A stretch of 64,000 nucleotides of DNA, taken from positions 15,639 to 79,638 of the forward strand of contig CAZRYM010000002.1 in assembly GCA_964604305.1 (NCBI GenBank), given 5' to 3'. The notes beneath the pieces were generated by a model that worked only from the letters and a program-made list of their open reading frames with translations, made no database searches and had not been told where the DNA came from. The stretch comes from an uncultured Thermotogaceae bacterium (GTDB lineage: Bacteria > Thermotogota > Thermotogae > MWEM01). This document shows, one piece after another, positions 1,043 to 41,230 of the stretch. The translations under genes and the position numbers were made by a program. Position 1 is the first letter of the stretch; the number at the start of each line of letters is the position of its first letter.

Positions 1043-1609
1043 ATGATAACAGATTTAAGAAGTATCACTTCGGATAAAATTGCAATAGGTATTATAAAAA
1101 GTTCTCACGGTTTAAAGGGTGAGGTAAAGGTTAAGGTCTATACCAATTACCTGTCGGTCTTTGAAAGGGATATAGATTATCTACTTTATAATAGCGATAA
1201 AAAGAGACATTTGATCGTAAAGATGCATACTATCAAAAATTCCGGAAAACACTTGATTATCCATTTTGAAGGTTTTAACAGTATTGAGGATGCAAATAAG
1301 ATTGCCGGATTTGAGATTTATACTGCTCTTGATCAATTGCCTGAGAATGATGAGGATGGATATTATTATTATCAGTTATACGATTGTAAAGTGATTGATG
1401 AAGATGATCATCCCGTAGGTCGTGTTGTTGATGTTATTGAAACAGGTGGGTCGGATGTCCTTTCGATATTTCCTGAAAACTGTGATGTTAAAGAGGAATC
1501 TGAGAAAGAGATTATGATTCCCGTTGTTCGTGACTTCATCATTTACCTGGACAAAGAACGAAAAATCATAAAAGTGCGTTTGCCAAAGTATCATCAAAGG
1601 AATGTTTAA
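1043..1609 (+). CDS. rimM: 16S rRNA processing protein RimM
   Basis: IGIIKSSHGLKGEVKVKVYTN matches the RimM N-terminal beta-barrel; sits in the rimM-trmD context. Confidence 0.85.
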   Translation: MITDLRSITSDKIAIGIIKSSHGLKGEVKVKVYTNYLSVFERDIDYLLYNSDKKRHLIVKMHTIKNSGKHLIIHFEGFNSIEDANKIAGFEIYTALDQLPENDEDGYYYYQLYDCKVIDEDDHPVGRVVDVIETGGSDVLSIFPENCDVKEESEKEIMIPVVRDFIIYLDKERKIIKVRLPKYHQRNV

Positions 1610-1611
1610 GG

Positions 1612-2920
<1,309 letters not shown>

Positions 2921-3409: not shown

Positions 3410-4246
3410 ATGAATAAAAAAAAGACATCAATCAAGGAAAAGGCAAAACAGGAAACCGTTGAATGGGTAAAGGCGTTGATATATGCCGTTATTGCCGTTG
3501 TTATCATAAGACTTTTTGTTTTTGAAACGATGATGGTGCCAACAGAATCGATGGTTCCCACAATTATCCCTCAGGATCGTTTGTTTGTTGAACGTATCAC
3601 TTATCAGGCCAGAGAACCGGAATATGGAGAAGTTGTTGTATTTTGGACCCCTTTTGTCGATAAAGAAGCTCAAAAGATGCTCAGAGCATTTGATCATTTT
3701 ATGGATATGTTTTCTCCAAAGGAATTCCAGGGACATGTGAAATATGTAAAACGGTTGATTGGAAAACCGGGCGATGTTGTGGAATTGTCACAAAACATCG
3801 GTGGCAGTGGTTACAGAGTGGTTATCAACGGACAAACCCCGGATCTTTTAAAGGACATTAATTATGAACGTGCAGCTATTTTTACAGATCCCAATTTTTA
3901 TAGAAAAATGGCTTTTCCTAAAGAATACCCTTACCTGAGTGCACAGGAAAAAAATCTCTTTAATTATTACAATGAGGCTTTGGATTACGAAATAGCATAT
4001 GAAGAGGTTTTTGGTAAATTGGAAGTTGAAGAATATGCCTGGTACGATAAAGACAGCGGAAAAGTAAAGATCAAGGTACCCGACGGGTTGTATTTTTTCA
4101 TGGGTGATAATTCAGCACATAGTTTTGACGGCAGGTATTTCGGATTTGTACCCGAAAAGAATATTGTTGGAGGCCCGCTTTTGATCTTTTGGCCATTAAA
4201 TCATTTTGGTCCAATAAACAAAGATGTGAAGCCAAATGGAGGATAA
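3410..4246 (+). CDS. lepB: Signal peptidase I
   Basis: N-terminal TM segment; SM(V)PT catalytic Ser box; KRLIGKPGD; GDNSxxSxDGRYFG box E. Confidence 0.85.
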   Translation: MNKKKTSIKEKAKQETVEWVKALIYAVIAVVIIRLFVFETMMVPTESMVPTIIPQDRLFVERITYQAREPEYGEVVVFWTPFVDKEAQKMLRAFDHFMDMFSPKEFQGHVKYVKRLIGKPGDVVELSQNIGGSGYRVVINGQTPDLLKDINYERAAIFTDPNFYRKMAFPKEYPYLSAQEKNLFNYYNEALDYEIAYEEVFGKLEVEEYAWYDKDSGKVKIKVPDGLYFFMGDNSAHSFDGRYFGFVPEKNIVGGPLLIFWPLNHFGPINKDVKPNGG

Positions 4247-5090
4247 ATGGTATCCCGGTCATATAGCAAAGGCTAAACGGAGAATCGGCGAAAAGGTAAA
4301 GGCCGTTAATGCGGTCATAGAAATGATTGATGCCAGAATTCCCCATTCGGGAAGAGCTTATGAGTGGCGTAAATTATTTCATAACAAATATACAATCATC
4401 CTGTTGACTAAAAGTGATTTAGCAGATCAAGAAGTGACAGAAAAATGGAACCGGTATTACAAAAAACAGGGCATCATGTGCCTGTCTGTTTCCTTAAAGG
4501 AAGATCCTGCGAAGATAAAGAAAAGACTTTTTCAGATCAAAGCAGGTATACCCTCTAAATCTCCTTTTAAAAGGGCCATGATTACCGGTATTCCAAATGT
4601 TGGAAAATCAACTCTCATAAATAAAATCTTGAATAAAAAGAGTATGCGAACAGGAAATACACCGGGTGTTACAAAAGGTCTTCAATGGATAAATGTCAGC
4701 GATGATTTTCTTCTCCTTGATACACCGGGTATCCTGTATTCTAACCTCTTCAGTGATGCAATAAAGTATAAATTACTTCTTACTGCAGGAATAAAATCAA
4801 CACCGGATATCATCGATTCTGCACTTGTCTTTGGAATTAGAATTTTGATCGAGAATTATCCCGAGATTCCCTTCAAAATCTTTGGAGAGCATTTCAACCC
4901 TGAGGAAATTGATATCGCTAAAGTCTATGAAAAGCTTTGTCAGAGGAGAGGGTTTTTATTGACGAAAGGTGAACCGGATCTTCAAAGGGCTAGAACGATA
5001 TTCCTAAAAATGTTTCAAGACGGTACAATTGGCCGAATAAGTCTCGAAACACCGGAATTGTTAGATTCTCAAACAGACGAAACATCTTGA
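4236..5090 (+). CDS. rbgA: Ribosome biogenesis GTPase A (YlqF/RbgA)
   Basis: WYPGHIAKAKRR N-terminus; circularly permuted GTPase with TKSDL before GIPNVGKST; DTPGIL. Confidence 0.85.
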   Translation: MEDKWYPGHIAKAKRRIGEKVKAVNAVIEMIDARIPHSGRAYEWRKLFHNKYTIILLTKSDLADQEVTEKWNRYYKKQGIMCLSVSLKEDPAKIKKRLFQIKAGIPSKSPFKRAMITGIPNVGKSTLINKILNKKSMRTGNTPGVTKGLQWINVSDDFLLLDTPGILYSNLFSDAIKYKLLLTAGIKSTPDIIDSALVFGIRILIENYPEIPFKIFGEHFNPEEIDIAKVYEKLCQRRGFLLTKGEPDLQRARTIFLKMFQDGTIGRISLETPELLDSQTDETS

Positions 5091-5507: not shown

Positions 5508-7079
5508 TTATTGTTTTTTGTATCCACCACCACCAGGTGTTTCTATTCTCAGTTTATCCCCATTTTTTAGAAAAAGGTTAAACTTGCCCGATAGTAATTG
5601 TTCGGTTTTGTCTTTCCGGAGTAATTTATTTTTACCGGTCTTTCCGCTATTTCCTCCAAGCAACCCATAAGGAGAATATCTTCTTCTCTCACTCAGCATC
5701 GTGCATTCGGCATCATTTAAAAGGGTGAATTCTCTTATCAAACCATCTCCGCCATTATGCATTCCTTTTCCTCCGCTGTTACGGCGAATGGCATATTTGC
5801 TGATTCTAAAAGGATATTCATATTCTATGGCCTCTATAGGTGTGTTAAGCGTATTCGTCATATGAGATTGGATTGCATTTTCACCGTCTGTTATTGAGCT
5901 GGCTCCCGTGCCTCCTCCCATAGTTTCATAATAAGCAAAGGCCTGTCCTGTGTTCTGTTCTGTACCGCCAATTGTAAGATTATTCATGGTTCCCTGACTT
6001 GCTGCAGGAATTCTCTCAGGAATAGCCTTAGAAAGGGCTCCCAGAAGACAGTCGACAATCCGTTGAGATGTTTCCACGTTGCCCCCTGCAACAGCTGCGG
6101 GATAGGTAGCATCCACTATGGTGCCTTTTTCAGTTATGATCTTCAAAGGATTCATGCAACCGGCATTCGTCGGTATGTTTTCCCTGACCAAACACCTGAA
6201 GACGTAAAGACAGGCAGAGGCTGTGATGGCATAAACGGCGTTTACACTTCCCTGGACTTGTATTGAACTACCTGTGAAATCGATAGTGGCCTGATCTCCA
6301 TTTATTTTAACAACGGTTTTGATCAAAATCGGTTCTTTTTCAACTCCGTCTGAATCCAAAAAATCCTGAAATTTGTAATTCCCATCCGGAATCTTGTCAA
6401 GTGTTTGCCTCATAATCCGTTCAGAATAATCCATCAGCGCATTGGAATACTCGACGGTACTTACATAGCCGTTTTTATCTATGAGTTCGTTAATTCTTCG
6501 AATTCCTGTTTGGTTTGCCATAAACTGAGCCGCAAAATCCCCTTGTCTTTCGATTCGCGTTCTTACGTTGCTTAGTATAAGGTTCATTAAGCCATCATCG
6601 ATCCGATTTGCTTTAATAATTTTCAATGCGGGGATGATGAGACCTTCCTGATAAATAGTCCTTGACAGGGGCATGGAACCTGCGCTCATGCCTCCAATAT
6701 CAGCATGATGTGCTCTGTTTGCGATGTAAAACAACGGGTGTTCGCCATGTTCTTTGGTGAAAACCGGCGCTACAATGGTTACATCCGGAAGATGGGTACC
6801 GCCTTTAAATGGATCGTTTAGAATGATCATATCACCCGGATCCATCTGAATATCATTTATGGCAGCTTTAACAGACATGGGCATAGAGCCAAGATGAACC
6901 GGTATATGTGCCGCTTGTGTAAGCATATCCCCCGATGCATTAAAGATGGCACATGAATAATCTCTTCTTTCTTTAATATTGGGTGAAAACGCGGTTCTGT
7001 TTAGTGTGACGCCCATTTCTTCTGCTACGGCAGAAAATTTGTTTTTGAATATTTCCAATTTTATCGGATCAGCGATCAT
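5508..7079 (-). CDS. hyuB: Hydantoinase B/oxoprolinase family protein (HyuB-like)
   Basis: 523 aa; MIADPIKLEIFKNKF... is the typical HyuB N-terminus; overlaps the hyuA stop (ATGA). Confidence 0.8.
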   Translation of the reverse strand: MIADPIKLEIFKNKFSAVAEEMGVTLNRTAFSPNIKERRDYSCAIFNASGDMLTQAAHIPVHLGSMPMSVKAAINDIQMDPGDMIILNDPFKGGTHLPDVTIVAPVFTKEHGEHPLFYIANRAHHADIGGMSAGSMPLSRTIYQEGLIIPALKIIKANRIDDGLMNLILSNVRTRIERQGDFAAQFMANQTGIRRINELIDKNGYVSTVEYSNALMDYSERIMRQTLDKIPDGNYKFQDFLDSDGVEKEPILIKTVVKINGDQATIDFTGSSIQVQGSVNAVYAITASACLYVFRCLVRENIPTNAGCMNPLKIITEKGTIVDATYPAAVAGGNVETSQRIVDCLLGALSKAIPERIPAASQGTMNNLTIGGTEQNTGQAFAYYETMGGGTGASSITDGENAIQSHMTNTLNTPIEAIEYEYPFRISKYAIRRNSGGKGMHNGGDGLIREFTLLNDAECTMLSERRRYSPYGLLGGNSGKTGKNKLLRKDKTEQLLSGKFNLFLKNGDKLRIETPGGGGYKKQ

Positions 7080-9794: not shown

Positions 9795-10721
9795 TCACAA
9801 AAGGGCTTTGAATGTTTGTTGCGTTTGTTCTCTAATAATCTCAACAGAGTGAAAAAAATGGGTGTTTTCTTCTTCTGAAAGTGATAAACTGATACTTCTT
9901 TCTATTCCGTTTTTCCCCACTACGCTGGGATAACCAATATAAATATCCTGAAAAGGAGAGGATAAGGTAAGAATTCGTTTCTCGTCATTTGCAATTGTTT
10001 GTACTATATGTGCTGTGGCTGATGCTATGGCAAAATTAGTTGCCCCTTTTTTATTGATTATTTCGTATGCAGCATTTTTTGTCTGTTCAAATAACCCTTC
10101 AAGGCACGATTCGCATCTATCAGGATTTGAACATTCTTGGCTGTAAGCACTGATTGGAATACCTCCGATTTTAGCTTGAGACCAAACAGCAACTTCTGAA
10201 TCACCATGTTCTCCAATGATATAAACATGTGCGTTCGAAGCAGAAATGGCACAATTTTTAGAGATTAGCGATCTTAAACGCATTGTATCGAGAACTGTTC
10301 CTGAGCCAACTACTCTGTTTTTGTTCAGTCCGGTCTCTTTTTGAACAACTGCCGTCATAATATCTACAGGATTGGTTAAAACAAGAATAATTGGGTTTTC
10401 ACAGTATTCTTTGATTTTTTTTGCTATTGATATCATTATTTTTGCATTTTTTTCAGAAAGTTCTAATCTTGTTTCACCTTCCTTTTGGGCTGAACCGGCA
10501 GAGATAATCACAATATCACTGTTTTTTAACAATTCAAAACTTCCGGCTTTTACCTTTGTTCTTCTGTAAAAAGGGGTGGAATGCATTAGATCCATTGCTT
10601 CGCCTTTAGCTAATTCCGAATTAATATCGATTAATACAAGTTCAGAAGCAATTCCCTTTTCCAAAATCGAAAACATTGTCGTAGAGCCTACTTTTCCGGC
10701 TCCAATCATACTTATTTTCAT
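9795..10721 (-). CDS. ldh: L-lactate dehydrogenase (LDH/MDH family)
   Basis: MKISMIGAGKVG Rossmann motif; ...IVIISAG...; LTNPVDI; catalytic IGEHGDS. Confidence 0.85.
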   Translation of the reverse strand: MKISMIGAGKVGSTTMFSILEKGIASELVLIDINSELAKGEAMDLMHSTPFYRRTKVKAGSFELLKNSDIVIISAGSAQKEGETRLELSEKNAKIMISIAKKIKEYCENPIILVLTNPVDIMTAVVQKETGLNKNRVVGSGTVLDTMRLRSLISKNCAISASNAHVYIIGEHGDSEVAVWSQAKIGGIPISAYSQECSNPDRCESCLEGLFEQTKNAAYEIINKKGATNFAIASATAHIVQTIANDEKRILTLSSPFQDIYIGYPSVVGKNGIERSISLSLSEEENTHFFHSVEIIREQTQQTFKALL

Positions 10722-28167: not shown

Positions 28168-29433
28168 TTAATCTATCTTGAATTCCCTGGTTGGATGGTT
28201 TGTGTAATTGATGACACGACCTTCCCAAGTCCTGATTGTAATGTATTCTTTCCCCCTTGAAATAAGGTATTCTGGCAGGATAGGTGTTTTACCATAACCG
28301 CCGGGCGCATTTATGATATATGTGGGGATTGCCAGACCTGAAGTGTAACCCCGCAGGTATTCCATGATTTCCAATCCGTCATCAACTGATGTATTAAAGT
28401 GCGTTGTGCCCTTCACATGTTTGGCATGAAAAATGTAATAAGGTCGCACCCGTACTTTCAATAGCTCTTGATTGAGTAATTTCATAACGTGTTTATCGTT
28501 ATTGATACCATTCAACAATACAGCCTGATTACCAAGTGGTATTCCTGCGTTTGCCAATTTTTCGCAAGCTTCTTTGGCTTCGATTGTAATCTCTTTTGGA
28601 TGATTGACATGTGTGTTGATAAAAAGCGGATGGTATTTTTTTAACATGCTAACAAGCTCATCTGTGATTCTTTGCGGCATGGTTACCGGAGTCCTGGAAC
28701 CTATTCTGATAATTTCCACATGTTCGATCTTTCGCAATTTTGACAGAATGTTTTCCAGGTAGTTGTCAGTCATAGTCAAAGGATCGCCACCGGTGATTAA
28801 TACATCCCTTATCTCTTCATTTTGTGCTATATAATCTATGGATTCATCGATTACGGATATCGGTTGCGGTTCATCTTCCTCTCCAATATTCCGTCTTCTC
28901 TGGCAATGGCGGCAAAACATGGCACATTCATTAGTAACATTAATGATCAATCTGTCGGGATATCGCCTGGTAACTGTTCCGGCCGGATTGGTAAGTTGTT
29001 CGTTCATGGGGTCTAATTTCCCTTCTTTGTCTACGTCTTCAAAGATCGTTGGTATAGCTTGTAATCTGATCGGACAATAAGGATTTGTTTTGTCCATGAG
29101 ACTGGCATAGTAAGGGGAAATTGCCCAGCGGTATCTTTCTCCGATTTTTTCAATGTCTTTTCTGTGCTTATCTGTTAAATCTACTACTTGTGAAAGAGTT
29201 GATACATCAGAGATTCGATTGGCCAGTTGCCAATGATAATCACGCCACTGTTCTAAAGTGCAATTTAATGCAAGCATGATTCGTTCACGATTTCTTTTAA
29301 ATTCCTCTGTGAGATCCATACCTTTTTTGATATGTTTTTTAGCCTCTATGAAGTCCGAAATTCGACTTTTCAGCTCTTGCGCCCTGTCCAAAGAAACACT
29401 TTTCTTTTTATCGTAGTTAGTATTTTTTTCCAT
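28168..29433 (-). CDS. kamA: Lysine 2,3-aminomutase (radical SAM, KamA family)
   Basis: CAMFCRHCQRRR CxxxCxxC radical-SAM motif; KamA-type N-terminal region; start at 29433 after GGGAGGTGG. Confidence 0.8.
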   Translation of the reverse strand: MEKNTNYDKKKSVSLDRAQELKSRISDFIEAKKHIKKGMDLTEEFKRNRERIMLALNCTLEQWRDYHWQLANRISDVSTLSQVVDLTDKHRKDIEKIGERYRWAISPYYASLMDKTNPYCPIRLQAIPTIFEDVDKEGKLDPMNEQLTNPAGTVTRRYPDRLIINVTNECAMFCRHCQRRRNIGEEDEPQPISVIDESIDYIAQNEEIRDVLITGGDPLTMTDNYLENILSKLRKIEHVEIIRIGSRTPVTMPQRITDELVSMLKKYHPLFINTHVNHPKEITIEAKEACEKLANAGIPLGNQAVLLNGINNDKHVMKLLNQELLKVRVRPYYIFHAKHVKGTTHFNTSVDDGLEIMEYLRGYTSGLAIPTYIINAPGGYGKTPILPEYLISRGKEYITIRTWEGRVINYTNHPTREFKID

Positions 29434-29696
29434 ATCAATCACTTGACCACCTCCCAAGGAGTCTGGAAAAACGAGAATATATTGACTATAAACCATTATA
29501 AATAATAAGATTTGCATAGTTTCAGCATAAAAACCAGAAAAGCAATTGTAGTTTACCTCAAAAGATTATAGCTTATTAAAAATGATATGTCAAATCACAA
29601 GGATTTGTTTTTTCTTGTCTTTAGAATTTCTTGTTGTTGGTTTGATTTGATATAATAGATCAGTTTGAAAGATATTAAAAGACGAGGTGAACGGCG

Positions 29697-32000
29697 TTGA
29701 CTATTGGTAAAAAATTGATGCTAGGGTTTGGTTTAATAATTGTGTTGTTGTTGATTGTGATGCTAATTTCTTTCATTTCCAGCCAAAGCATTAAAGACGA
29801 GGGTGAAAGTATTGTGATTCAGGCAAAAGATGCCAGATCTGAATACAAACAATTTACTAACATAGATACTTTTGAATCGGATTTAAAGGATATGCTCCAA
29901 TATGTATTGAGACTGGGTTATGTAACAAATACAGATGAACAGGAAATGATGTTCGAAGAATATAAAAAGATGTTTTCTGCTGTAGAAGAACTGTCGAAGA
30001 CTAATGGATTTTTTTCACTTTTAGAATTAGAATTAACCAAATTGAATGATAGTGTTGAAAAGATCTTCACGCAAAAGGCGTTAGAATTGGATGCCCTTTC
30101 ACAGCTTTCTGCTGACAAAGTAACAGCAGAGGACATCAGAACACAATTGGAATTTTTGTATAAAGAAAAGGAAGAACTGCTAAAGAGGGATGACATGAAG
30201 ATCGTCCGTATCATTCAAACTTTACAAATGATGAAACAGGATTATATTTCCTTAAGACAGCCTGATGAAAAGAAAGAGAATGAAATAAAAGAACGACTTT
30301 TAGAATCAGGTTTAGATGGGTTAACTTTCATTGAGATGGAAGTTTTATGGGACAATGAAGTTTTGGGAGGGCCGCCAATCACTGGATTTCCTATGCTTAT
30401 TCTCTGTGCAAGAGAATTGATGGCAACCGATGGTAAATATCCGGATTTCTTATCAGAGTTGAAACAGGCGAAAGAAGATATTCTGGATTATATAAAATTA
30501 AAAACTCAATTTGGTTATACTACATATGATGCTGTGGCATCCATTTTTGTTCCGTTATCTGTTGAGTTATATGAAAAAAAACTGAAAAAACTGCAGGAGT
30601 CGTTGTTAAAAATAAGCCGTATGGAAGTCAATTTACAAGCAAAGGAAAATATGGTCGGCTACCATAATGAAACTGCTGAGCAAGCCCGAAAAGACTCGCT
30701 AAATACCATTAAAAATGAACTTTCAACAGTATTGAATGATTTGCAGGTACGACTTGAAGCACTTATTTCTGAAAGCGCCACTAGTTTTAATGAAAATCTC
30801 AATCAAGTGGAAGAAAAAAGTGAAGAAAGCGTTACTCTGATAAACAACATGAATTCGTTTATTTTGATCGTGTTGATCACATCCGTTTTGATCAGCATCA
30901 TCATTGCCTACTTTATCTATTCAAGTATCAAAAAACCTATTGTCAACATCCTGAAAAAAACCGAAAAAATCAAAAACCTTGACTTTACTGTTGAATTTGA
31001 AGAAACAAAGAAAAAAGATGAAATGGGACAATTGGAAACTGCGTTGAAAGAGATTGTATGGGCTGTTAAAGAAACCTTGCAGAATGTAAAAAAGGCAATA
31101 GAAGATGTGAAGGAATCCACCGACAAACTGGAACAGGTAGCCGGTGAATCCGAAAACATCTCAAAGGAGCTTAAATCACAGGCAGACAGGACGGAAAACG
31201 ATGTACAAGACACGTCAGCGGCGATTGAAGAGGTAAGTTCGGGAGTAGAGGAAGTGGCGGCATCGGCGAAGAACATCACAGACGTATCGTCAGATCTGTA
31301 CGAAAGGACACAGGAAACGTCCAAATCGGCAAAAAGCGGACAGAAAGAACTGACAAAAGTGGCAGACATTGTCAAGGAAGCGGAAGAGCAGGCAAAGGCA
31401 ACGTCCAGAGTAGTAGAGGAGTTGCAAGCAAATGCGAAGAACGTGGGAGAAATCGTCAAGACGATATCGGGAATCTCAGAACAGACGAACCTGTTGGCGT
31501 TAAATGCTGCGATAGAGGCAGCGCGTGCTGGAGAAGCAGGTAAAGGCTTTGCGGTAGTAGCGGATGAGATCAGGAAATTGGCGGAAGAGAGTCAGAAATC
31601 GACGGAAGACATTGCAAAGATGCTCAAAGAGATTGGAAATGGAGTGGGCGAAGTCAACGATGCTTCGGATAAGACGGTGGAGATTGTAAACAAGATGGAA
31701 GAAAACTCCAGAGAGGCCCTTGAACAATTTGAAAACATACTTGAACGACTGAGCGGGGTAACGGAGTCCGTCCACAATCTCAACAGTACATCAGAGGAAC
31801 AAAGTGCGGCAGCGCAAGAGATAGCGGATGCAATGGATCAATCAGCCCGATCCATGGTTAATGCTTCCGAACAGGTTGAGAATATGGTTCGTGATGTTGA
31901 ACAACAAGTTGATTCAATATCAAAAATGAATGAGATATCACAAACAATGAGGCGTTTAGCAGATGATTTAAGATTGGATATCAGCAAATTTAAATCATAA
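29697..32000 (+). CDS. Methyl-accepting chemotaxis protein 1 (N-terminal TM span, large extracytoplasmic sensor, second TM, HAMP, MCP signalling domain)
   Basis: TM1 [22 protein letters not shown]2 [20 protein letters not shown], then HAMP; highly conserved MCP signalling domain ...[39 protein letters not shown]. Confidence 0.85.
31119..31891 (+). repeat. Copy A of a 773-bp block 100% identical to 33599-34371 (MCP signalling domain), GC-rich relative to its flanks
   Basis: Base-by-base identity with an offset of 2480 bp; mismatches immediately outside both ends. Confidence 0.95.
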
Positions 32001-32176
32001 ACAATAAATTGTCATCGGAAGGAAAAGATCACAGTTGATAATAACCGAAAATCCTATAAACGTATTACTATATTAAACAAAAAACAACGATATAGAAAAA
32101 CTATATTGGAACGTTTTTTGGAAAAGAATAAATGTGATAAAATAGAATAATCAGCGTGCAATCGAGGAGGGAATGA

Positions 32177-34480
32177 ATGAAAATTTCTACCAAGTTATTA
32201 ATGGGATTTACAGTTATTATTATCATTCTTGTTGTAGTTTTATTGGTATCCACCATATCTAACAGAGAAGTTGTTTTGCAAGCAGATACTGTTCTTGAGC
32301 AAACAGATGCTTCTGAGAAAGAGCTTCTTGAATTTAGAAGGTATAATCAGTTGGAAAGTGGTATCAAAGATATGATACAGACTGTATTGAATTTGGGATA
32401 TGTGGCAACGATAGAAGAAGAGAATTTGATTAAAGAACAATACCAAAAAAATGTAGAAAGTTTGAAGGAGATCATATCAAGCTATGAAAGTGCTGAGACT
32501 TACTTACAAACTATTTCTCAGATAGACGAATATGTCAAAGATGTATTCAACTATAAAGAAATAGAGATTCTTTCTCAAAAGGAATTAGAAGAGAATCAGG
32601 AAAAGCAAAAGCAATTCATGGTAAAAAAGACTTCTTTTACTGAAAAGATTCAGAAGATGCAGAAAGTAGATATGCAAAAAGTTGAAAAAACCATGGAATC
32701 GTTTAAACTTATAAAAGACGAGCATGCAGAAATGAAAAAGCCAACCGATGAGCAAAAGCAGATGTTGAATGAAGAGTTGATCAGTAAAACAGATGTCGAA
32801 GAGTTGGGAATGTATGAAATAGAGGAGATTTGGAAACCGGAATTACTTGATATAACCATAAAGGAGTTTTCTGATCTTGAATTCGTAACACGAAATATTA
32901 TCATCAATCCGGAAGATTCGGAGGAATTGCTTCCCAAGGCAGTTGAAATTGCCGAAAAGATAAACAGCAATGTGGGTTTTCAGGTGATGTTTGGTTCAGC
33001 TGTGTATGATCCTGTCTCTGCACAACTGATATCTTTAACCTTGGATAAGTATATTGAGCAGCTGAAAGAAATGGTAAAAATAATCAATGAGAGAGAAGAA
33101 AATGAAAAAGCCATGATCGTAGTACAGGAAGTAATAGAAAATGCAAATCAAAGGGTAGATGAAAGCAGAACTTTGGCTTTTAATATTATCAATACCAATA
33201 TTAAGACTAGCAGTCGGGAGCTGTCATCCATTATCGAGGAAAAAGCCGAAAACCAATATGGAAGTTTGAAACAAAGTTTTGAATCTATCAAAAAGAATAA
33301 CACAACCAGTAAAGAAACAATAGAGAAAAACAATTTCCAAATATTATTGCTGATATCAATCACCATTGTGATTAGTCTGATTGTAGCGGTAGTTATTATC
33401 AGAAGCATTAAAAAGCCAATTAAACGTTTACTTGAGAAATCAACTTTACTTCAAAATCTGGATATGACGGTGGATTTTGAAGCAGATAGCGGTAAAGACG
33501 AAATAGGACAAATCGAACACGCACTGGCACGGGTCGTAGAGGTCATAAAAGATACATTAACCGATTTCAGAAATGCAGTTCAGAACGTTAGAATGGCAAC
33601 CGACAAACTGGAACAGGTAGCCGGTGAATCCGAAAACATCTCAAAGGAGCTTAAATCACAGGCAGACAGGACGGAAAACGATGTACAAGACACGTCAGCG
33701 GCGATTGAAGAGGTAAGTTCGGGAGTAGAGGAAGTGGCGGCATCGGCGAAGAACATCACAGACGTATCGTCAGATCTGTACGAAAGGACACAGGAAACGT
33801 CCAAATCGGCAAAAAGCGGACAGAAAGAACTGACAAAAGTGGCAGACATTGTCAAGGAAGCGGAAGAGCAGGCAAAGGCAACGTCCAGAGTAGTAGAGGA
33901 GTTGCAAGCAAATGCGAAGAACGTGGGAGAAATCGTCAAGACGATATCGGGAATCTCAGAACAGACGAACCTGTTGGCGTTAAATGCTGCGATAGAGGCA
34001 GCGCGTGCTGGAGAAGCAGGTAAAGGCTTTGCGGTAGTAGCGGATGAGATCAGGAAATTGGCGGAAGAGAGTCAGAAATCGACGGAAGACATTGCAAAGA
34101 TGCTCAAAGAGATTGGAAATGGAGTGGGCGAAGTCAACGATGCTTCGGATAAGACGGTGGAGATTGTAAACAAGATGGAAGAAAACTCCAGAGAGGCCCT
34201 TGAACAATTTGAAAACATACTTGAACGACTGAGCGGGGTAACGGAGTCCGTCCACAATCTCAACAGTACATCAGAGGAACAAAGTGCGGCAGCGCAAGAG
34301 ATAGCGGATGCAATGGATCAATCAGCCCGATCCATGGTTAATGCTTCCGAACAGGTTGAGAATATGGTTCGACAGCTTGAAAATCAATCAGCTTCGGTAA
34401 AAGATTTATCTCAGACTTCAAGCGAGTTGACAGTTCTAAACAAAGAACTTGAAGAGGATATCAACAAATTTAAATTATAG
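32177..34480 (+). CDS. Methyl-accepting chemotaxis protein 2; tandem paralog with a divergent sensor domain and an identical signalling domain
   Basis: Same architecture and length (767 aa) as MCP1; N-terminal 470 aa unrelated at sequence level; C-terminal 257 aa identical. Confidence 0.85.
33599..34371 (+). repeat. Copy B of the 773-bp identical block
   Basis: See copy A. Confidence 0.95.
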
Positions 34481-34495
34481 TCAAATAAGATGAAT

Positions 34496-34522
34496 AAGCG
34501 GGTTTATTGCCCGCTTTTTTCT
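34496..34522 (+). terminator. Rho-independent terminator (AAGCGGG-uuuauug-CCCGCUU + U6) after MCP2
   Basis: GC-rich 7-bp stem followed by TTTTTT. Confidence 0.65.
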
Positions 34523-34568
34523 TACTTCAATATGCGGAATCATATGGTATAATTCTCCATCAACTAGA

Positions 34569-34649
34569 AATAACAACTTTTAGACATTAAAGCAGGTAAT
34601 AATCAGCCTGCTAAATATTTTCAAAAATGATTCTGAATAACAACTTTTA
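34569..34649 (+). promoter_or_regulatory. Two copies of the 14-nt direct repeat AATAACAACTTTTA (34569-34582 and 34636-34649) in the leader of the nucleoside-salvage operon; an extended -10 (tggTATAAT) lies at 34544-34552
   Basis: Exact 14/14 repeat 67 bp apart; the second copy overlaps a TTTTAAAAT -10-like element. Confidence 0.4.
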
Positions 34650-34699
34650 AAATGAGGCAGATTTTTTTATTTAAAGGATTTTTAATGAAGGGGGTCTTT

Positions 34700-35629
34700 A
34701 TGTCAAGAAAGATTATCCTGGATTGTGATCCAGGCCATGATGATGCTGTTGCGATACTCCTTGCAGGTATTGCTGAAGAGTTAGAACTTTTGGGAATAAC
34801 AACCGTAGCAGGAAATTCGTATGTTGAAAATACGACAAAAAATGCATTGATTCTTGTGGAAAATGGAAAACTCAACGTTCCGGTTTGTGAAGGTGCCTCA
34901 AAACCTTTGGTTAGAGAACAAATCGTTGCTCCGGATATTCACGGAGAATCAGGTTTAGAAGGAGCCAATCTGCCACAACCAACCATCAAGAAAGATTCAA
35001 GAGGTGCTGTAGAGTTCATTGCACAAAAACTATGTGAATTCCAAAATGAAGTGACACTTGTTGCAGTGGGACCCCTTACGAATATAGCAACATTTGTGAT
35101 CAATTATCCCGAATTGGTAGAGAAAGTCCAAGAACTGGTAATTATGGGAGGGGGTATTGAATTTGGCAATACTACACCCGTAGCCGAGTTCAATATTTTA
35201 GCCGATCCTGAGGCAGCGCAAATTGTATTTAACTCTCATATTCCTCTCACAGTTTTCGGTTTGGATGTAACACATCAAACGAAAATCTTCATGGAGGAGA
35301 TAAAGAAAATGCAAGCCTTTTCCTCATTTATCGTTTCAAAAATGGGATTGCTGCTTGAGTTTTTTCATCAAACCTACTTCGATGTTTTTAAAATTAAAGG
35401 CGCTCCTTTACACGATCCATGTGCAATCGCTTATTTAATTGAACCGGAATTGTTTGAATACAAAGAATATTATTGCCAGATAGAGCTAAAGGGACAATTA
35501 ACTTATGGACAAACGGTTGTTGATTACTGGAAAAACAATGGGAAAACACCTAATTCAAAGTGGGCGATTAAAGCAAATAGAGAAAGATTTATCAATTTAC
35601 TTTTCGATAAACTATCAAAATATGAATAA
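34700..35629 (+). CDS. iunH: Inosine-uridine preferring nucleoside hydrolase
   Basis: KIILDCDPGHDDAVAILLA is the IU-NH aspartate cluster; start ATG 34700 after GGGGG; the ORF track begins at 34652. Confidence 0.8.
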   Translation: MSRKIILDCDPGHDDAVAILLAGIAEELELLGITTVAGNSYVENTTKNALILVENGKLNVPVCEGASKPLVREQIVAPDIHGESGLEGANLPQPTIKKDSRGAVEFIAQKLCEFQNEVTLVAVGPLTNIATFVINYPELVEKVQELVIMGGGIEFGNTTPVAEFNILADPEAAQIVFNSHIPLTVFGLDVTHQTKIFMEEIKKMQAFSSFIVSKMGLLLEFFHQTYFDVFKIKGAPLHDPCAIAYLIEPELFEYKEYYCQIELKGQLTYGQTVVDYWKNNGKTPNSKWAIKANRERFINLLFDKLSKYE

Positions 35630-35646
35630 ATTGGAGGTTTTGTTGA

Positions 35647-36402
35647 ATGGAAAATCCCACCTATCACATTCAAATAGAGGATAGTCAAAAGGTTGGCAGA
35701 TACGTTTTACTGCCGGGAGATCGGGGCAGGGTTAAACGAATGGCAAAGTATTTGGAAAATCCTGTTGTGGTTGGAGACAACAGAGAGTATTTTACAATGA
35801 CGGGACAACTTAACGGTGAAAAGGTTTCCGTTATGTCAACGGGAATGGGAGCACCTTGTATATCCATCGGAGTAGAGGAGATAAGAACATTAGGAGCGGA
35901 TACATTCATACGTGTTGGCACAACCGGTGCTTTACAGCCTCATATCAACCTGGGTGATTCAATTATTGCAACGGCTGCTGTCAGATCAGATGGAACCATG
36001 GTTGAATATGTACCCAGGGAGTATCCCGCTGTTGCCGATTTTAACGTTATCAGTAAAATGAAGAATGCTGCAGAAATCATCGATAATCCCCATCATCTGG
36101 GTATTGTTCACTCTACAGATTCTTATTATGGCAGAAATTTCAATCCGGAAGCGGCATTGGAGTATTCAAAATTGCTTGCGAAGGCAAATGTATTAGCAGT
36201 GGAGATGGAAATATCAGCGCTTTACATTTTAGGGTCAATATATGCTTTAAGAACCGGCGCCATACTCACAATAAGAGAAGCTCGAAAGAAAATTGGAGAA
36301 ACTTATCAACAAGCTGGCGAGGAATATGAACAGGGTATGGAAAAGTCGATTCAGATTGCATTCAAGTCTATAGAATTACTTATCGAGGAAGACAGGGCTT
36401 AA
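35647..36402 (+). CDS. Nucleoside phosphorylase (PNP/UDP family 1; purine or uridine phosphorylase)
   Basis: GDRGRVKRMAKYL...MSTGMGAPCISIGVEEI...VGTTGAL...MEISAL are PNP/UDP family motifs. Confidence 0.75.
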   Translation: MENPTYHIQIEDSQKVGRYVLLPGDRGRVKRMAKYLENPVVVGDNREYFTMTGQLNGEKVSVMSTGMGAPCISIGVEEIRTLGADTFIRVGTTGALQPHINLGDSIIATAAVRSDGTMVEYVPREYPAVADFNVISKMKNAAEIIDNPHHLGIVHSTDSYYGRNFNPEAALEYSKLLAKANVLAVEMEISALYILGSIYALRTGAILTIREARKKIGETYQQAGEEYEQGMEKSIQIAFKSIELLIEEDRA

Positions 36403-36429
36403 TGCCCTTAAAATACAGGAGGTGTATTT

Positions 36430-37506
36430 ATGAAAAAAGCATTAATCGTACTCTTATTAACTGTGTTTGTAGTGAGTGTTTTTTCGGCACCAAGGGTTCT
36501 TAACCTCATCAATGGAACGCTGGGAGACAAATCATTCTTTGATTCAGCTGAACGCGGGATGGTGATGGTTCAAGAAAAACTTGGACTTGAGACAAAGACC
36601 ATTGAAATGGGTTATAACCCCTCAGAATGGAAACCAACTCTTGAGGACATGTCAGACTCGGGTATGTATGATCTGATAGTTGTTGGAACATGGCAAATGG
36701 TCGATACACTTGCTGAGATTGCTCCCTATTATCCTGAAATTACCTACATCATCTATGATACTGACATGCCATTTGACAACGGAAATCTCGATAACGTTTA
36801 TGCCATGACGTACAAACAGAATGAAGGTTCATTCCTTGCCGGTGCTCTTGCAGCAATGGTATCAAAAGATACCGAATTGGCATACAGTAATTCTGATAAC
36901 AAAATTATCGGATTGCTTGGAGGAATGGATATTGCCGTTATCAATGACTTTCTAGTGGGATATATTGAAGGTGCTCAGTATGTTGATCCGGAAATGAGGG
37001 TCACAACTTCTTATGTAGGTGCCTGGAATGACCCTGCAAAGGGAAAAGAATTCACTTTGGCCATGTACAGGCAAGGAGCAGATGTTGTCTTTGCAGTTGC
37101 GGGTGAAACTGGAAATGGCGTACTTGAAGCTGCTAAAGAAATGGATAGATGGTCAATTGGAGTCGATTCAGATATGCAATTAATCTATGAAGAGAAGGAT
37201 ATGGCCATTGTCAACCACATGCTGACATCCATGCTCAAGAATGTTGACCAGTCAGTTTACAGAGCAGTAGAGATGTATCTGAACGATGAGCTTCCTCTGG
37301 GTACAACCGAAGCTTTGGGATTAAAAGAAAACTCAGTTGGACTTGCCAAAAATCAATATTTTGACAAATTCCTTCAAGAGAATCCTGAAATCGCAGAAAG
37401 GCTTGACGAGATAGAAAAAATGATTCTCGATGGAAAGATTTCTGTTTCTTCAGCTTTTGGAATGACTAATGAACAGCTCAATGCCGTAAGGGATGCAGCT
37501 AAATAA
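36430..37506 (+). CDS. BMP-family (PnrA/Med/TmpC-like) ABC substrate-binding protein, nucleoside-binding type
   Basis: Signal peptide; BMP-family fold motifs; operon context with a two-domain ATPase and two permeases. Confidence 0.75.
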   Translation: MKKALIVLLLTVFVVSVFSAPRVLNLINGTLGDKSFFDSAERGMVMVQEKLGLETKTIEMGYNPSEWKPTLEDMSDSGMYDLIVVGTWQMVDTLAEIAPYYPEITYIIYDTDMPFDNGNLDNVYAMTYKQNEGSFLAGALAAMVSKDTELAYSNSDNKIIGLLGGMDIAVINDFLVGYIEGAQYVDPEMRVTTSYVGAWNDPAKGKEFTLAMYRQGADVVFAVAGETGNGVLEAAKEMDRWSIGVDSDMQLIYEEKDMAIVNHMLTSMLKNVDQSVYRAVEMYLNDELPLGTTEALGLKENSVGLAKNQYFDKFLQENPEIAERLDEIEKMILDGKISVSSAFGMTNEQLNAVRDAAK

Positions 37507-37525
37507 ATTTTTTATATTCTTAAAA

Positions 37526-37554
37526 TAGGCTTCCCGGGGGGAGCCTATTTTTTA
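37526..37554 (+). terminator. Intra-operon terminator/attenuator hairpin after the SBP gene (TAGGCTTCCC-gg-GGGAGCCTA + U6)
   Basis: About 10-bp stem followed by TTTTTT; typical high-SBP-expression arrangement. Confidence 0.5.
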
Positions 37555-37569
37555 TCAAGGAGTGATTTA

Positions 37570-39120
37570 ATGGAAGAAAATTGTATCCTTGAAATGAAAG
37601 ATATCTGGAAGATTTATCCTAACGGTGTTGTTGCGAACAAAGCAATGAATCTGAAGGTTAACAAGGGTGAAATACACGCGCTTCTTGGAGAAAATGGTGC
37701 CGGTAAATCGACCTTGATGAAGATTTTATTTGGTATCGAACAACCCACTAAAGGAGAGATTATCTATGAGGGTCAAAATGTGGATATTTCTTCGCCCGGC
37801 AAAGCGATTGAACTCGGAATAGGCATGGTTCATCAGCATTTTATGCTGGTTCCCTCCCTGACCGTTGCTGAGAATATTATCCTGGGGATGGAACCCAAGA
37901 AAGGACTCTCAATAGATATAGAACAGGCATATCATTTTGTTCAGCATCAATCAGATGTTTTTGGGCTTCCCGTCCCTTCAAAAGAAAAAGTTAAGGACAT
38001 ATCGGTGGGGATGAAGCAACGGGTCGAAATCATTAAAACTTTGGTCAGAGGGGCCAATCTCATCATACTTGACGAGCCAACTGCGGTCTTGACACCTCAA
38101 GAAATGGTTGATTTGTTCAAAGCTTTGAAGAATCTTACTGAAAAGGGGAAGACGATCATCTTCATCACCCATAACCTCAATGAGGTTAAAGAAATCGCCA
38201 ACAGAATTACGGTAACTAGAAGAGGTAGGGTGGTTGGAACAGCAGAAGTTAAGGATATTTCTGAAATAGAAATGTCAAAAATGATGGTTGGAAGAGATGT
38301 GGATATTAGAATTGATAAAGAACCTGCTAAAACAGGTGAAAAACTTATGGAAATTAACGATCTGGAGTTCACAAGGGCTGATGGAGTCAAATCACTTAAT
38401 GGAATTTCTTTTTCATTACGAGAAGGGGAAATCCTTGGAGTAGCAGGAGTTGAAGGTAATGGTCAGACTGAATTGGTACAAATCATTACCGGGATTATAC
38501 CAAGGGAAAGCGGGCGAATAAGGTTAAATGCTGTTGATCTTCCCGGTAAGACTAATCCGGGATTTTGCAGAAATGCGGGATTAAGTCATATTCCCTCTGA
38601 TAGAATGGAAAGGGGAGTTGCTTCTGATTCCACCATAGCAGAAAATATCATCAGTGATAGGTTTAAAAAACAACCCTTTTCGAACAAAGGCGTTCTTAGT
38701 TGGAGGGAAATTCATCGCTTTGGAGAAGAAATGGTCAAGGAATTTGATATTCGAACAGACAGCGCAAAGACTGAAATTAAAATGCTATCAGGTGGGAATA
38801 TTCAAAAAGTGGTTGTAGCAAGGGAGTTTACCGCCCATTCGAAGATCACCATTGCAGATCAGCCTACAAGAGGAATCGATATTGCAGCGGCGGATTTTAT
38901 CAGAAGAAGGCTTGTAAAGGAAAGAGAAAATAATCTTGGAGTTTTGCTTGTTTCGGCCGATCTCACCGAACTTTTAGAAGTGGCAGACAGAATCATCGTG
39001 TTGTATAAAGGGGAAACTGTTGCTCATTTTAAAGATATCAAAAAAATTAATGAAACCGTATTAGGGGAATATATGTTGGGAATCAAAAGAATGTCTAATG
39101 AAGAAATGGGTGATTTGTAA
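37570..39120 (+). CDS. ABC transporter ATP-binding protein with duplicated ABC domains (CUT2/BMP type)
   Basis: Walker A GENGAGKST; signature LSGGNIQK; second domain GVEGNGQTEL; 516 aa. Confidence 0.85.
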   Translation: MEENCILEMKDIWKIYPNGVVANKAMNLKVNKGEIHALLGENGAGKSTLMKILFGIEQPTKGEIIYEGQNVDISSPGKAIELGIGMVHQHFMLVPSLTVAENIILGMEPKKGLSIDIEQAYHFVQHQSDVFGLPVPSKEKVKDISVGMKQRVEIIKTLVRGANLIILDEPTAVLTPQEMVDLFKALKNLTEKGKTIIFITHNLNEVKEIANRITVTRRGRVVGTAEVKDISEIEMSKMMVGRDVDIRIDKEPAKTGEKLMEINDLEFTRADGVKSLNGISFSLREGEILGVAGVEGNGQTELVQIITGIIPRESGRIRLNAVDLPGKTNPGFCRNAGLSHIPSDRMERGVASDSTIAENIISDRFKKQPFSNKGVLSWREIHRFGEEMVKEFDIRTDSAKTEIKMLSGGNIQKVVVAREFTAHSKITIADQPTRGIDIAAADFIRRRLVKERENNLGVLLVSADLTELLEVADRIIVLYKGETVAHFKDIKKINETVLGEYMLGIKRMSNEEMGDL

Positions 39121-40280
39121 TGAAGGCTGACAAGCGCTTTACTTTATATAGAATCGGAATTTCTGTAGGAATTGCTCTGCTCATTGGATATATTATTGTA
39201 TTCGTTTCAAGTGTTCCTTCCACAAATATCTCTTTCTTGAAAAAAATGAAAGAGGCGTTTGACAGCGCAAACGAAGCGTATAAATACTTCCTTACCGGTG
39301 CGTTGGTTCGTTGGCGTTCTACCGGTGCCGCTTTTAATCAAAGCGGTTTTATTCAATGGATTAATGAGGCAGTCCCAATTATAATAACCGGTCTTGCTGT
39401 TTCTATGGTATTTACTGCAAAACAATTTAATATCGGTGCAGAAGGCCAGATGTTCCTTGGTGCAGCAGTTGCAACTGCTGTAGCGATTTATTTTCCGGGA
39501 ATCCCGTTTATCTCAACTTTGTTTGTCATCCTTACTGCGATGGCTGTTGGTGCCGGATTTGCATCTATTCCCGGTTATATGAAAGCCAGATTAAAAGCTT
39601 CGGAGCTTGTCACTTCACTTATGCTAAATTATGTTGCCTTTTTTATGGGATTGTTTATCATTAAAACCTTTCTGAGAGATACGGAAGCGGGGTCCCTTGT
39701 ATCCCTTCAGTTCCAGGAGCAGGCCATGCTGCCATTGTTAAACGAAAGGTACAGATGGCATATCGGAATCTTTTTTGCATTGGGGATGACCCTTCTTGTG
39801 TGGTTCATCATGAAAAAGACAACATGGGGGTACAAGGTCAAACTGATAGGTGATAACCTGAAATTTGCCGAATATTCCGGTATTAATTCATCGAAGATGA
39901 TTTTACAGGTTCAAGTGGCTGCAGGTGCTGTTGCAGGATCTGCAGGTATCGTCGAACTACTCGGTTATCACGGCCGTTTCTTATGGTTATATTCTCCGGG
40001 TTATGGTTGGGACGGTATCATAATTGCCACATTGGCAAGGAACAACCCTCTTTTTGTGCCACTGGCTGCATTATTTCTTTCTTATATTCGGGTGGGAGCA
40101 AAAATTATGGGAAGATACACCAGCATAGCTCCTGAAATTGTCGCAATTTTACAGGCTGTGATTATCTTATTGGTAACTGCCGAAGCGTTCTTGGCAAAAT
40201 GGAAACAGAGGTCCGTTAATAAAGAGGCCACAAAGAACGAGAACAGCATTACTGGAGTACAAGTAGGTGAGGCAAAATGA
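39120..40280 (+). CDS. ABC transporter permease (BMP system)
   Basis: Multi-TM; ATGA-type overlap with the ATPase gene. Confidence 0.8.
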   Translation: MKADKRFTLYRIGISVGIALLIGYIIVFVSSVPSTNISFLKKMKEAFDSANEAYKYFLTGALVRWRSTGAAFNQSGFIQWINEAVPIIITGLAVSMVFTAKQFNIGAEGQMFLGAAVATAVAIYFPGIPFISTLFVILTAMAVGAGFASIPGYMKARLKASELVTSLMLNYVAFFMGLFIIKTFLRDTEAGSLVSLQFQEQAMLPLLNERYRWHIGIFFALGMTLLVWFIMKKTTWGYKVKLIGDNLKFAEYSGINSSKMILQVQVAAGAVAGSAGIVELLGYHGRFLWLYSPGYGWDGIIIATLARNNPLFVPLAALFLSYIRVGAKIMGRYTSIAPEIVAILQAVIILLVTAEAFLAKWKQRSVNKEATKNENSITGVQVGEAK

Positions 40281-41230
40281 ATGAAATGCTTCAAGGTATA
40301 TTATCATGGGATTTTATTGCAGCAGGTATAAGAGTTACAACGCCGATTCTTCTTGCTGCGTTAGGTGCTTTAATAGCTGAATCTGCCGGCACACCAAACA
40401 TCGCCCTTGAAGGCATCATGCTGATCTCAGCCTTTATAGGGGTAATTGTCAGCGGATTTACAGGAAGTTTATGGCTCGCCATCATCTTTGGGGTAATCGT
40501 GGGAACGATGATGGCTGCAGTTTTGGCGTATTTTGCTTTAAAACTGAAGACAGATATTATTTTAGCGGCTATTGCGTTGAATATCTTCGCCAGTGGGGGA
40601 ACGATCTTTTTCCTTGCCATGCTCACCGGTGATAAAGGCTCATCAGCTTCGGTTAATTCATTGCTTATTCCCAATCTGACTATTCCGCTGATCGATAAGA
40701 TTCCCATACTTGGTGATATTCTCAGCGGACATCATTCCATTACTTATGTAGCAATTATTCTGATCTTCGTAGTTCAGTATATAATGTACAAGACACCGTT
40801 GGGTTTGAGAATCAGAGCAGTGGGAGAAAATCCGGATGCCGCAGAATCAGTAGGTATATCAGTAATTAAGACAAGATTTATTGCCTTAATGCTAAGTGGA
40901 TTTTTGGCCAGTTTAGGTGGTTTATTTCTTTCAATGGGTTACGTTTCATGGTTTGCCAGAGATATGACTGCGGGGCGAGGGTGGATAGCATTGGCTGCCC
41001 AAGCGCTGGGTGGATTAAATGCCTTTGGCGTAGCTGCCGGGTCTTTCCTTTTTGGATTTACTGAAGCTGCCTCCTACTCATTGCAAATATTTGATATTCC
41101 CTATGAATTCACACAATCACTGCCGTTTATCATTACGATTGTTGTGTTGGGGATTTACGCTTGGCGAAAAGTCAAGGCATCGGGAAAGCTGAATGTGTCA
41201 AATAGTTCAATCGGTCCTACTGAAAAATAA
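40277..41230 (+). CDS. ABC transporter permease (BMP system)
   Basis: Multi-TM; 4-bp overlap with the preceding permease gene. Confidence 0.8.
   Translation: MNEMLQGILSWDFIAAGIRVTTPILLAALGALIAESAGTPNIALEGIMLISAFIGVIVSGFTGSLWLAIIFGVIVGTMMAAVLAYFALKLKTDIILAAIALNIFASGGTIFFLAMLTGDKGSSASVNSLLIPNLTIPLIDKIPILGDILSGHHSITYVAIILIFVVQYIMYKTPLGLRIRAVGENPDAAESVGISVIKTRFIALMLSGFLASLGGLFLSMGYVSWFARDMTAGRGWIALAAQALGGLNAFGVAAGSFLFGFTEAASYSLQIFDIPYEFTQSLPFIITIVVLGIYAWRKVKASGKLNVSNSSIGPTEK

Follow-up and report, generated by a model that had tools for sequence, protein, structure and literature searches.

Evidence from sequence comparison for sustained concerted evolution of an internal signalling segment in two tandem chemoreceptor genes of an uncultured Thermotogaceae bacterium

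We analysed a 64-kb window (64,000 nucleotides of contig CAZRYM010000002.1, assembly GCA_964604305.1, from an uncultured Thermotogaceae bacterium), in which two tandem open reading frames (ORFs) on the same strand, here called A and B, each encode a methyl-accepting chemotaxis protein (MCP) of 767 amino acids (aa). The copies of an internal 773-bp block in the two genes are identical with zero mismatches at an offset of 2480 bp. Comparison with related genomes indicates that sustained concerted evolution by gene conversion, as opposed to a single recent event or module swapping, underlies this pattern. The best explanation is very probably that A and B are old tandem paralogues in which an internal segment of ~770–800 bp is held identical by frequent gene conversion.

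The identical block and the architecture of the receptors

The first mismatches between A and B were found at gene nucleotides (nt) 1422 and 2196, right outside either end of the block. The ungapped nucleotide identity of the two genes outside the block was 43% (nt 1–1422) and 54% (nt 2196–2304), and with flanks at this level an exact run of 773 bases is far from chance expectation (about 0.45^773). No second long repeat was found within the 64-kb window. The two methylation helices and the flexible bundle lie in the block, as does the kinase-control hairpin tip at E613, and all of the methylation motifs are inside it. It is internal to the genes, and the C-terminal 36 aa differ between A and B. 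We also considered a block symmetric about the hairpin tip, whose end-points would then be structural, but this was dropped given that the tip is at aa 613, the block spans aa 475–731 and the respective partner positions are 751 and 495.

An earlier sequence-only reading of this DNA had described two 767-aa chemoreceptors of the same architecture that share a 773-bp exact match with mismatches just outside it. Our recomputation reproduced the match and its edges, and the ORFs and the HAMP and MCPsignal domains agreed with the described architecture. The shared cassette of that reading was likewise found as an identical signalling block, but it cannot be equated with the C-terminus since the last 36 aa differ.

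Both proteins have the features of a class I transmembrane MCP, namely an MCPsignal domain with the hairpin tip, a HAMP domain after the second transmembrane segment (TM2) and two TMs bracketing a sensor. MCPsignal (PF00015) scored 133.9 and 133.6 bits in A and B, respectively, against a cut-off of 34.6 (Pfam E of 6.7e-39 for A), and HAMP scored 26.7 bits in A (E of 7e-6; cut-off 25) and 24.1 bits in B, slightly under the cut-off. TM-like hydrophobic stretches, located by eye from the sequence at aa ~7–27 and ~386–408, flank an extracytoplasmic region of ~355 aa. The conserved MCP hairpin-tip motif is present in both proteins, and the methylation-site consensus Glx-Glx-x-x-Ala-Ser/Thr was matched, as a motif only, on both arms at aa 511, 518, 564 and 700. 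The closest solved structure for the cytoplasmic domain was Thermotoga maritima TM1143 (PDB 2CH7; E = 2e-39 over ~290 residues), and aa 459–767 make up ~309 aa against the ~308-aa hairpin of the 44-heptad class, with small gaps relative to this best PDB match. Exact look-ups of the window proteins A and B returned no recorded match for either.

Comparison with related genomes

Scanning species-representative genomes with the cassette identified 7 metagenome-assembled genomes (MAGs) of uncultured Thermotogaceae/Thermotogota, and more contigs were obtained via look-ups of homologous proteins. The gene order of a lysine-2,3-aminomutase-like radical SAM gene (LAM, minus strand), A, B and a nucleoside hydrolase gene is present in at least five other uncultured Thermotogota lineages, and it continues after the nucleoside hydrolase with a conserved PNP phosphorylase and then a PnrA-type ABC transporter. 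Genes A and B are both complete with 767 aa in L001, L005, L006 (= L019/L020) and L007 (= L021/L022). The A sensor has orthologues with 64–74% aa identity in these four, and the B sensor has orthologues with 69–75% aa identity in the same four and in L002 and L004.

Within each pair-bearing genome, there was no difference between the A and B blocks, synonymous sites included. Between genomes, the block was 78–91% identical at the nucleotide level with 75–127 synonymous differences and a proportion of synonymous differences (pS) of 0.44–0.75, where the encoded proteins were 91–96% identical. Because the synonymous sites vary between species, purifying selection cannot explain the identity of A and B. 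For the sensors, orthologues were 65–87% identical in nucleotide identity matrices versus 41–45% for paralogues, and for sensors and tails together the corresponding ranges were 65–91% and 41–54%. The 5′ part of window gene A was 67–73% identical to its A orthologues, and its tail was 54% identical to the B tail and 72–79% identical to the A tails of other genomes. The block therefore groups paralogues by genome and the sensors and tails group by orthology, as is characteristic of concerted evolution, and the cassette divergence between genomes follows that of the flanking genes.

Tract ends carried a further signal. The 3′ end of the block was located at gene nt 2191–2195 in all five of the five genomes, right after ENM[V/A]. 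Contig L004 starts 55 nt before the 3′ edge of its A copy, and those 55 nt are identical to the L004 B copy with the same 3′ edge. The 5′ end varied, lying at 1391, 1393 and 1399 versus 1421 and 1423 (Table 1). The B-type ‘AV[QE][ND]VRMA’ is retained in gene B of the window and L007, and the A-type ‘AI[ED][NE]VKxS’ is found in gene B of L001, L005, L006, L002 and L004. The window and L007 belong to different sub-clades, and L006, which is sister to L007, has a different 5′ end. This distribution points to at least two independent A-to-B conversions with tracts ~30 nt longer, one of which would have occurred after the split of L006 and L007. Such independent extensions of the tract argue that conversion is recurrent and not a single event.

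The age of the duplication was indicated by more distant relatives. L028, a more distant Thermotogota contig, shares the upstream synteny (TruB, FAD synthetase, an unnamed ORF and LAM on the minus strand) and carries a tandem pair A′/B′, the cassettes of which are 69% identical at the nucleotide level with a third-position identity of 0.31–0.62 and a longest exact run of 21 nt. These diverged cassettes imply that the duplication predates the clade and that conversion is not automatic for a pair of this kind. The B-lineage sensors of L016, which has a single MCP at the locus, and of P0015 were 48% and 39% identical to B, respectively, and 18% identical to A, which also argues for an old duplication. 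A derivation of A from B after the split of L016 was rejected, given that the L016 and P0015 sensors are far nearer to B than A is and that L028 has both paralogues.

Loss of one copy was observed in L002 and L017, where two internal deletions have left gene A as a pseudogene remnant (L002 4126–4578; L017 1341–1793) and B is the sole MCP at the locus. The remnant comprises the promoter, the first ~23 nt, gene nt ~1354–1520 and the last ~63 nt of the spacer. From exactly nt 1391 onwards, its cassette portion has 90% identity to the resident B cassette, and this drift suggests that the copies diverge once conversion stops.

The sequence-only reading had attributed the pattern to very recent gene conversion or module swapping, with one signalling cassette under concerted evolution on two sensing modules. 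Concerted evolution was recovered in four other lineages, and the cassettes were identical in each genome; a divergence of the cassettes in related strains that kept pace with the other parts of the genes would have spoken against it and was not seen. Gene conversion can thus be retained, but not as a single, very recent event, since the identity appears to have been regenerated independently in every lineage examined. Module swapping found no backing: the orthology of sensors and tails is strict, and the diverged cassettes of L028 show that the tandem duplication is an old one.

The block is also distinctive in base composition. Its GC content at third codon positions (GC3) was 0.43–0.52 in all of the pair-bearing genomes and that of the sensors was 0.30–0.39, and the 43 other ORFs of the window had a GC3 of 0.35 ± 0.03 with a maximum of 0.42. 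For the window block, GC3 was 0.496 versus 0.324 expected from the amino-acid-corrected codon usage of the window (z = 5.9), and the largest excess in 242 equal-sized control windows was 0.09, below that of the block. In the single-copy cassette of L016, GC content at the first and second codon positions was the same and GC3 was 0.37, near its own background, and in the non-converting L028 the cassette GC3 of 0.51–0.53 equalled the background of 0.46–0.55. The excess is therefore limited to the putatively converted tract and is not seen in the two non-converting controls, as expected under GC-biased gene conversion (gBGC). With synonymous sites at saturation between lineages, the excess could not persist without active maintenance, and we tentatively regard gBGC as its simplest reading. 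A decay of GC3 was expected in the L002/L017 cassette after the loss of A and was not seen, the value still being 0.50; the remnant is only 10% diverged, so the time for such a decay may have been too short.

Proposed mechanism and alternative explanations

In the favoured explanation, A and B would be old tandem paralogues encoding Thermotoga-type transmembrane chemoreceptors, where the sensor/HAMP parts and the 36-aa tails follow independent courses of evolution under constraints of their own. Recurrent RecA-type non-reciprocal homologous recombination between the two direct repeats, 2.5 kb apart, would homogenise the segment of methylation helices and CheA/CheW-binding hairpin tip, which would then evolve as one unit per genome. 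Homology drops off abruptly in the flanks, which may confine the tract ends, and selection against chimeric HAMP-proximal regions or for a receptor-specific tail would probably contribute. Unequal-crossover deletions fusing the A sensor to the B tail would arise as a by-product, as might, more tentatively, a GC-biased fixation of synonymous changes within the tract. The two receptors would feed different inputs via an identical kinase-control and adaptation module, with identical interfaces to the CheA/CheW and CheR/CheB systems.

The alternative that deserves most attention, although we consider it unlikely, is an assembly artefact in which one collapsed consensus was output at both positions or the tandem order itself arose by mis-assembly. 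Two copies of a repeat around a unique segment form an X-R-Y-R-Z loop, a topology that makes assemblers reuse one node, and fused or broken versions of the locus were indeed found. In L015 (gene model P0007; ENA ERZ23495372 scaffold_28264, 2945 nt), one gene consists of the A sensor, the block and the B tail, where the contig differs from the window at 5 positions in 2890 nt and its last 55 nt have no match to the window. The same fused gene occurs at 10001–12304 of L018 (gene model P0013; ENA ERZ27257452 k141_670628), a 41.7-kb MEGAHIT contig that is 99.8–99.98% identical to L007, and the other assemblies of the L007 species (L007, L021 and L022) show the tandem pair. Each of these fusions, which come from two independent lineages, would be the product of either a real unequal-crossover deletion or an assembler shortcut across the loop. 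No B-sensor protein of the L015 strain was found in a collection of 5.8 billion proteins, which leans to a real deletion; as a counterpoint, MEGAHIT contigs of the same project cross the repeat in another way (L023). Further contigs end at a k-mer distance from the repeat edge, which is 55 nt for L004, 126 nt for L023 (k = 141) and 18 codons for P0008. The fused L015 and L018 and the broken L004, L023 and P0008 bear out the earlier expectation that the locus is a hot spot for recombination and assembly collapse. P0008 is a 492-aa fragment on a 1791-nt contig of an NCBI MAG labelled Bacteroidales bacterium and consists of the B sensor and 18 cassette codons of the L007 species; a contig break at the repeat, followed by mis-binning, is its probable origin.

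Several observations weigh against strict identity by conversion and its GC-biased form. Exact identity in short-read MAGs is partly given by construction, as a de Bruijn graph represents a repeat as one node that is traversed twice. When the L007 block (3547–4317 and 5999–6769) was compared with L018, L021, L022 and L023, the five assemblies had 4 variable sites in the 771-bp block versus 8 in about 11 kb of unique sequence, a ~7-fold enrichment, and each variant, at gene nt 1782, 1794, 1875 and 1887, was present in both copies of its assembly. Collapsed paralogue-specific variants would look like this, and the real copies could differ at a few positions. The GC3 argument has just two controls, and the GC3 of L004 (0.43) and of the A-less L002 (0.50) is not ranked as a simple model predicts. 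Conversion itself is deduced by comparing sequences and not from direct observation of the events. On the other side, two distinct intact sensors and two distinct tails have orthologues in 4–7 genomes from independent projects and assemblers, so that both genes exist and both must abut the block. Since collapse itself requires an identity of ~98–99% or more, the conclusion of concerted evolution survives a few paralogue-specific variants.

Explanations other than artefact and recurrent conversion fared worse. A scenario in which each lineage underwent its own recent event, by re-duplication or by horizontal replacement of the cassette as a form of module swapping, has in its favour that tandem paralogues can arise repeatedly, an alternative that was raised for tandem fla genes (PMC6053082). 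We nevertheless find it highly improbable, as the A and B sensors and tails are orthologous across all of the genomes and the pair predates the clade (L028), a re-duplication would have copied the sensors and tails too, the divergence of the cassette between genomes tracks that of the flanking genes, and at least five independent swaps sharing a 3′ edge within 4 nt would be unparsimonious. Purifying selection at the nucleotide level, through an embedded RNA or an antisense gene, could be invoked as antisense ORFs of 91–180 aa overlap the block, but it seems hardly credible given that between genomes the block approaches saturation at synonymous sites (pS up to 0.75), which leaves the nucleotide sequence unconstrained. 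An Rfam search of window positions 29000–35000 returned no match, which counts against the embedded-RNA variant.

Recurrent gene conversion between old paralogues may have a stronger form, which we regard as possible but rather doubtful as a whole, where gBGC acts within the genome and measurably raises synonymous GC content, the boundary, fixed to within 4 nt throughout the existence of the clade, is the border of a functional module and the A-sensor/B-tail fusions of two lineages (L015 and L018) are circulating alleles. If so, the border would separate a receptor-specific HAMP-proximal bundle and tail from an interchangeable adaptation and kinase-control core, and fusion alleles generated by unequal crossover would change the sensory repertoire within populations.

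Sensor domains, neighbouring genes and known systems

The sensor domains, located at 29781–30851 and 32261–33331 of the window, have diverged from each other but belong to the same rare family of all-helical sensors. The sequence-only reading had taken them to be unrelated over ~470 aa, which was contradicted by our alignment; residues 1–474 of A and B are colinear homologues (BLASTP alignment of residues 1–472 with 27% identity and 55% positives over 482 columns, E = 9e-45). An AlphaFold2 (AF2) model of the B sensor (aa 29–385) was entirely helical with a pLDDT of 91, and its top Foldseek matches were TorS (3O1J), McpS (2YFA, HBM) and McpZ (8F7N), all of which were weak (E of ~5e-3, TM of 0.2–0.36). 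No Pfam model exceeded its cut-off for the sensor, with 4HB_MCP_1 below its cut-off, and no Pfam match to a Cache domain was found. An exhaustive profile search recovered the family as 43 clusters among 1.84 billion representatives, nearly all of which were MCPs of ~765–780 aa, and a metagenome scan with the B-sensor alignment gave 600 pattern matches, 0 of which were confirmed.

Features of the locus are listed in Table 1. A terminator-like hairpin was looked for in the A–B spacer and none was found. Downstream of the pair, positions 34652–41230 form a nucleoside-salvage cluster of an inosine-uridine (IU) nucleoside hydrolase, a PNP phosphorylase, a PnrA/Bmp-type binding protein and an ABC transporter, which adjoins the MCP pair in all of the clade members. 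It is a speculative thought, drawn by analogy from this cluster and from the weak resemblance to TorS, which senses via a binding protein, that the A and B sensors might sense nucleosides indirectly. In the distant relatives L028 (10467–15648) and L024 (12005–17121), the genes after the B-lineage MCP are not those of the nucleoside cluster but encode an HD-GYP-like protein, a response regulator and a large HATPase/CheX protein. Upstream of the pair, a perfect sigma-70-type promoter consensus (TTGACA-17-TATAAT) at 29565–29593 on the minus strand faces the LAM-like gene, and its −35 element (TGTCAA on the plus strand) lies within a short intergenic stretch that still matches the corresponding gaps of L002 and L016.

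Table 1. Coordinates of features at the tandem MCP locus in the window and of the exact A/B blocks in related genomes
Feature	Position	Strand	Description
LAM (lysine-2,3-aminomutase-like radical SAM) gene	28168–29517	−	Pfam; conserved upstream synteny anchor
MCP gene A	29697–32000	+	767-aa ORF, TTG start, GAGGTG ribosome-binding site upstream; TM1, ~355-aa helical sensor, TM2, HAMP, signalling hairpin, A-specific tail
Putatively unconverted 5′ part of A	29697–31118	+	TM1, periplasmic helical sensor, TM2, HAMP, first ~20 residues of descending helix
Putative conversion block, A copy	31119–31891	+	Gene nt 1423–2195, aa 475–731; exact match to 33599–34371
A-specific C-terminal tail	31892–32000	+	36 aa and stop
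A–B spacer	32001–32176	+	Promoter-like TGGAAA-18-TAGAAT and gene B ribosome-binding site (consensus matches only)
MCP gene B	32177–34480	+	767-aa ORF, ATG start, GGAGGG ribosome-binding site upstream; layout as gene A but with B-specific sensor and tail
Putatively unconverted 5′ part of B	32177–33598	+	B-specific ‘AVQNVRMA’ kept directly 5′ of block
Putative conversion block, B copy	33599–34371	+	
B-specific C-terminal tail	34372–34480	+	36 aa and stop
Terminator-like hairpin and T-run after B	34496–34516	+	
Inosine-uridine nucleoside hydrolase	34652–35629	+	Pfam; conserved downstream synteny anchor
A/B exact block, L001	gene nt 1391–2193		803 bp
A/B exact block, L005	gene nt 1393–2192		800 bp
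A/B exact block, L006	gene nt 1399–2191		793 bp
A/B exact block, L007	gene nt 1421–2191		771 bp

The locus offers an unusually clean, multi-lineage case of apparent concerted evolution limited to one domain in bacteria, with L028 as an internal negative control. Of its features, the GC3 signal and the conservation of the tract boundary most deserve attention. The locus suggests which parts of a chemoreceptor can be shared between receptors, namely the methylation helices and the tip, and which must stay receptor-specific, namely the HAMP-proximal segment and the last 36 residues. It may also serve as a natural test, if a small one, of whether conversion in a prokaryote is GC-biased, and it gives a practical warning that such a locus breaks or mis-joins short-read assemblies, yielding the chimeric gene models P0007 and P0013 and the mis-binned fragment P0008.

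GC-biased gene conversion is known for paralogue families of eukaryotes. A bacterial form was described by Lassalle et al. 2015 (PMC4450053), and the window pair resembles such systems in that GC3 is raised specifically in the recombining tract, but here conversion would be intragenomic between two paralogues and not between alleles. T. maritima TM1143 (2CH7, 3JA6) shares with the window pair the length from HAMP to the C-terminus, ~309 aa, but has a different sensor.

The nearest precedent is found in Campylobacter jejuni, where the group A transducer-like proteins Tlp2, Tlp3 and Tlp4 are paralogous transmembrane chemoreceptors with identical signalling domains and dCache sensors that are ~30% identical (PMC9769880), and where the conserved C-terminal DNA of these genes was proposed as a substrate of homologous recombination leading to a ~92-kb inversion (PMC6433261). 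Both systems combine identical signalling domains with diverged sensors in one genome. However, the Campylobacter genes are dispersed and the window pair is tandem, and their sensors are of the dCache_1 type and those of the window pair are all-helical, which makes the pair an analogue and not a member of that group. Furthermore, the C-terminal 36 aa lie outside the identical block here, and homogenisation was seen in five or more species-level lineages, with an outgroup that does not convert for comparison.

According to a prokaryote-wide survey, the text of which contains no chemotaxis gene, long-lasting concerted evolution of protein genes is rare (PMC6053082). The window pair resembles tufA/tufB and the rRNA operons in that paralogues within a genome are closer than orthologues between genomes, at synonymous sites too and repeatedly across lineages (PMC6053082), but differs from them in that homogenisation is restricted to a single internal segment of the gene, about the size of a domain. 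In sum, concerted evolution by gene conversion is already known in other bacteria, and the tandem chemoreceptor pair of this window is a new, well-controlled example.

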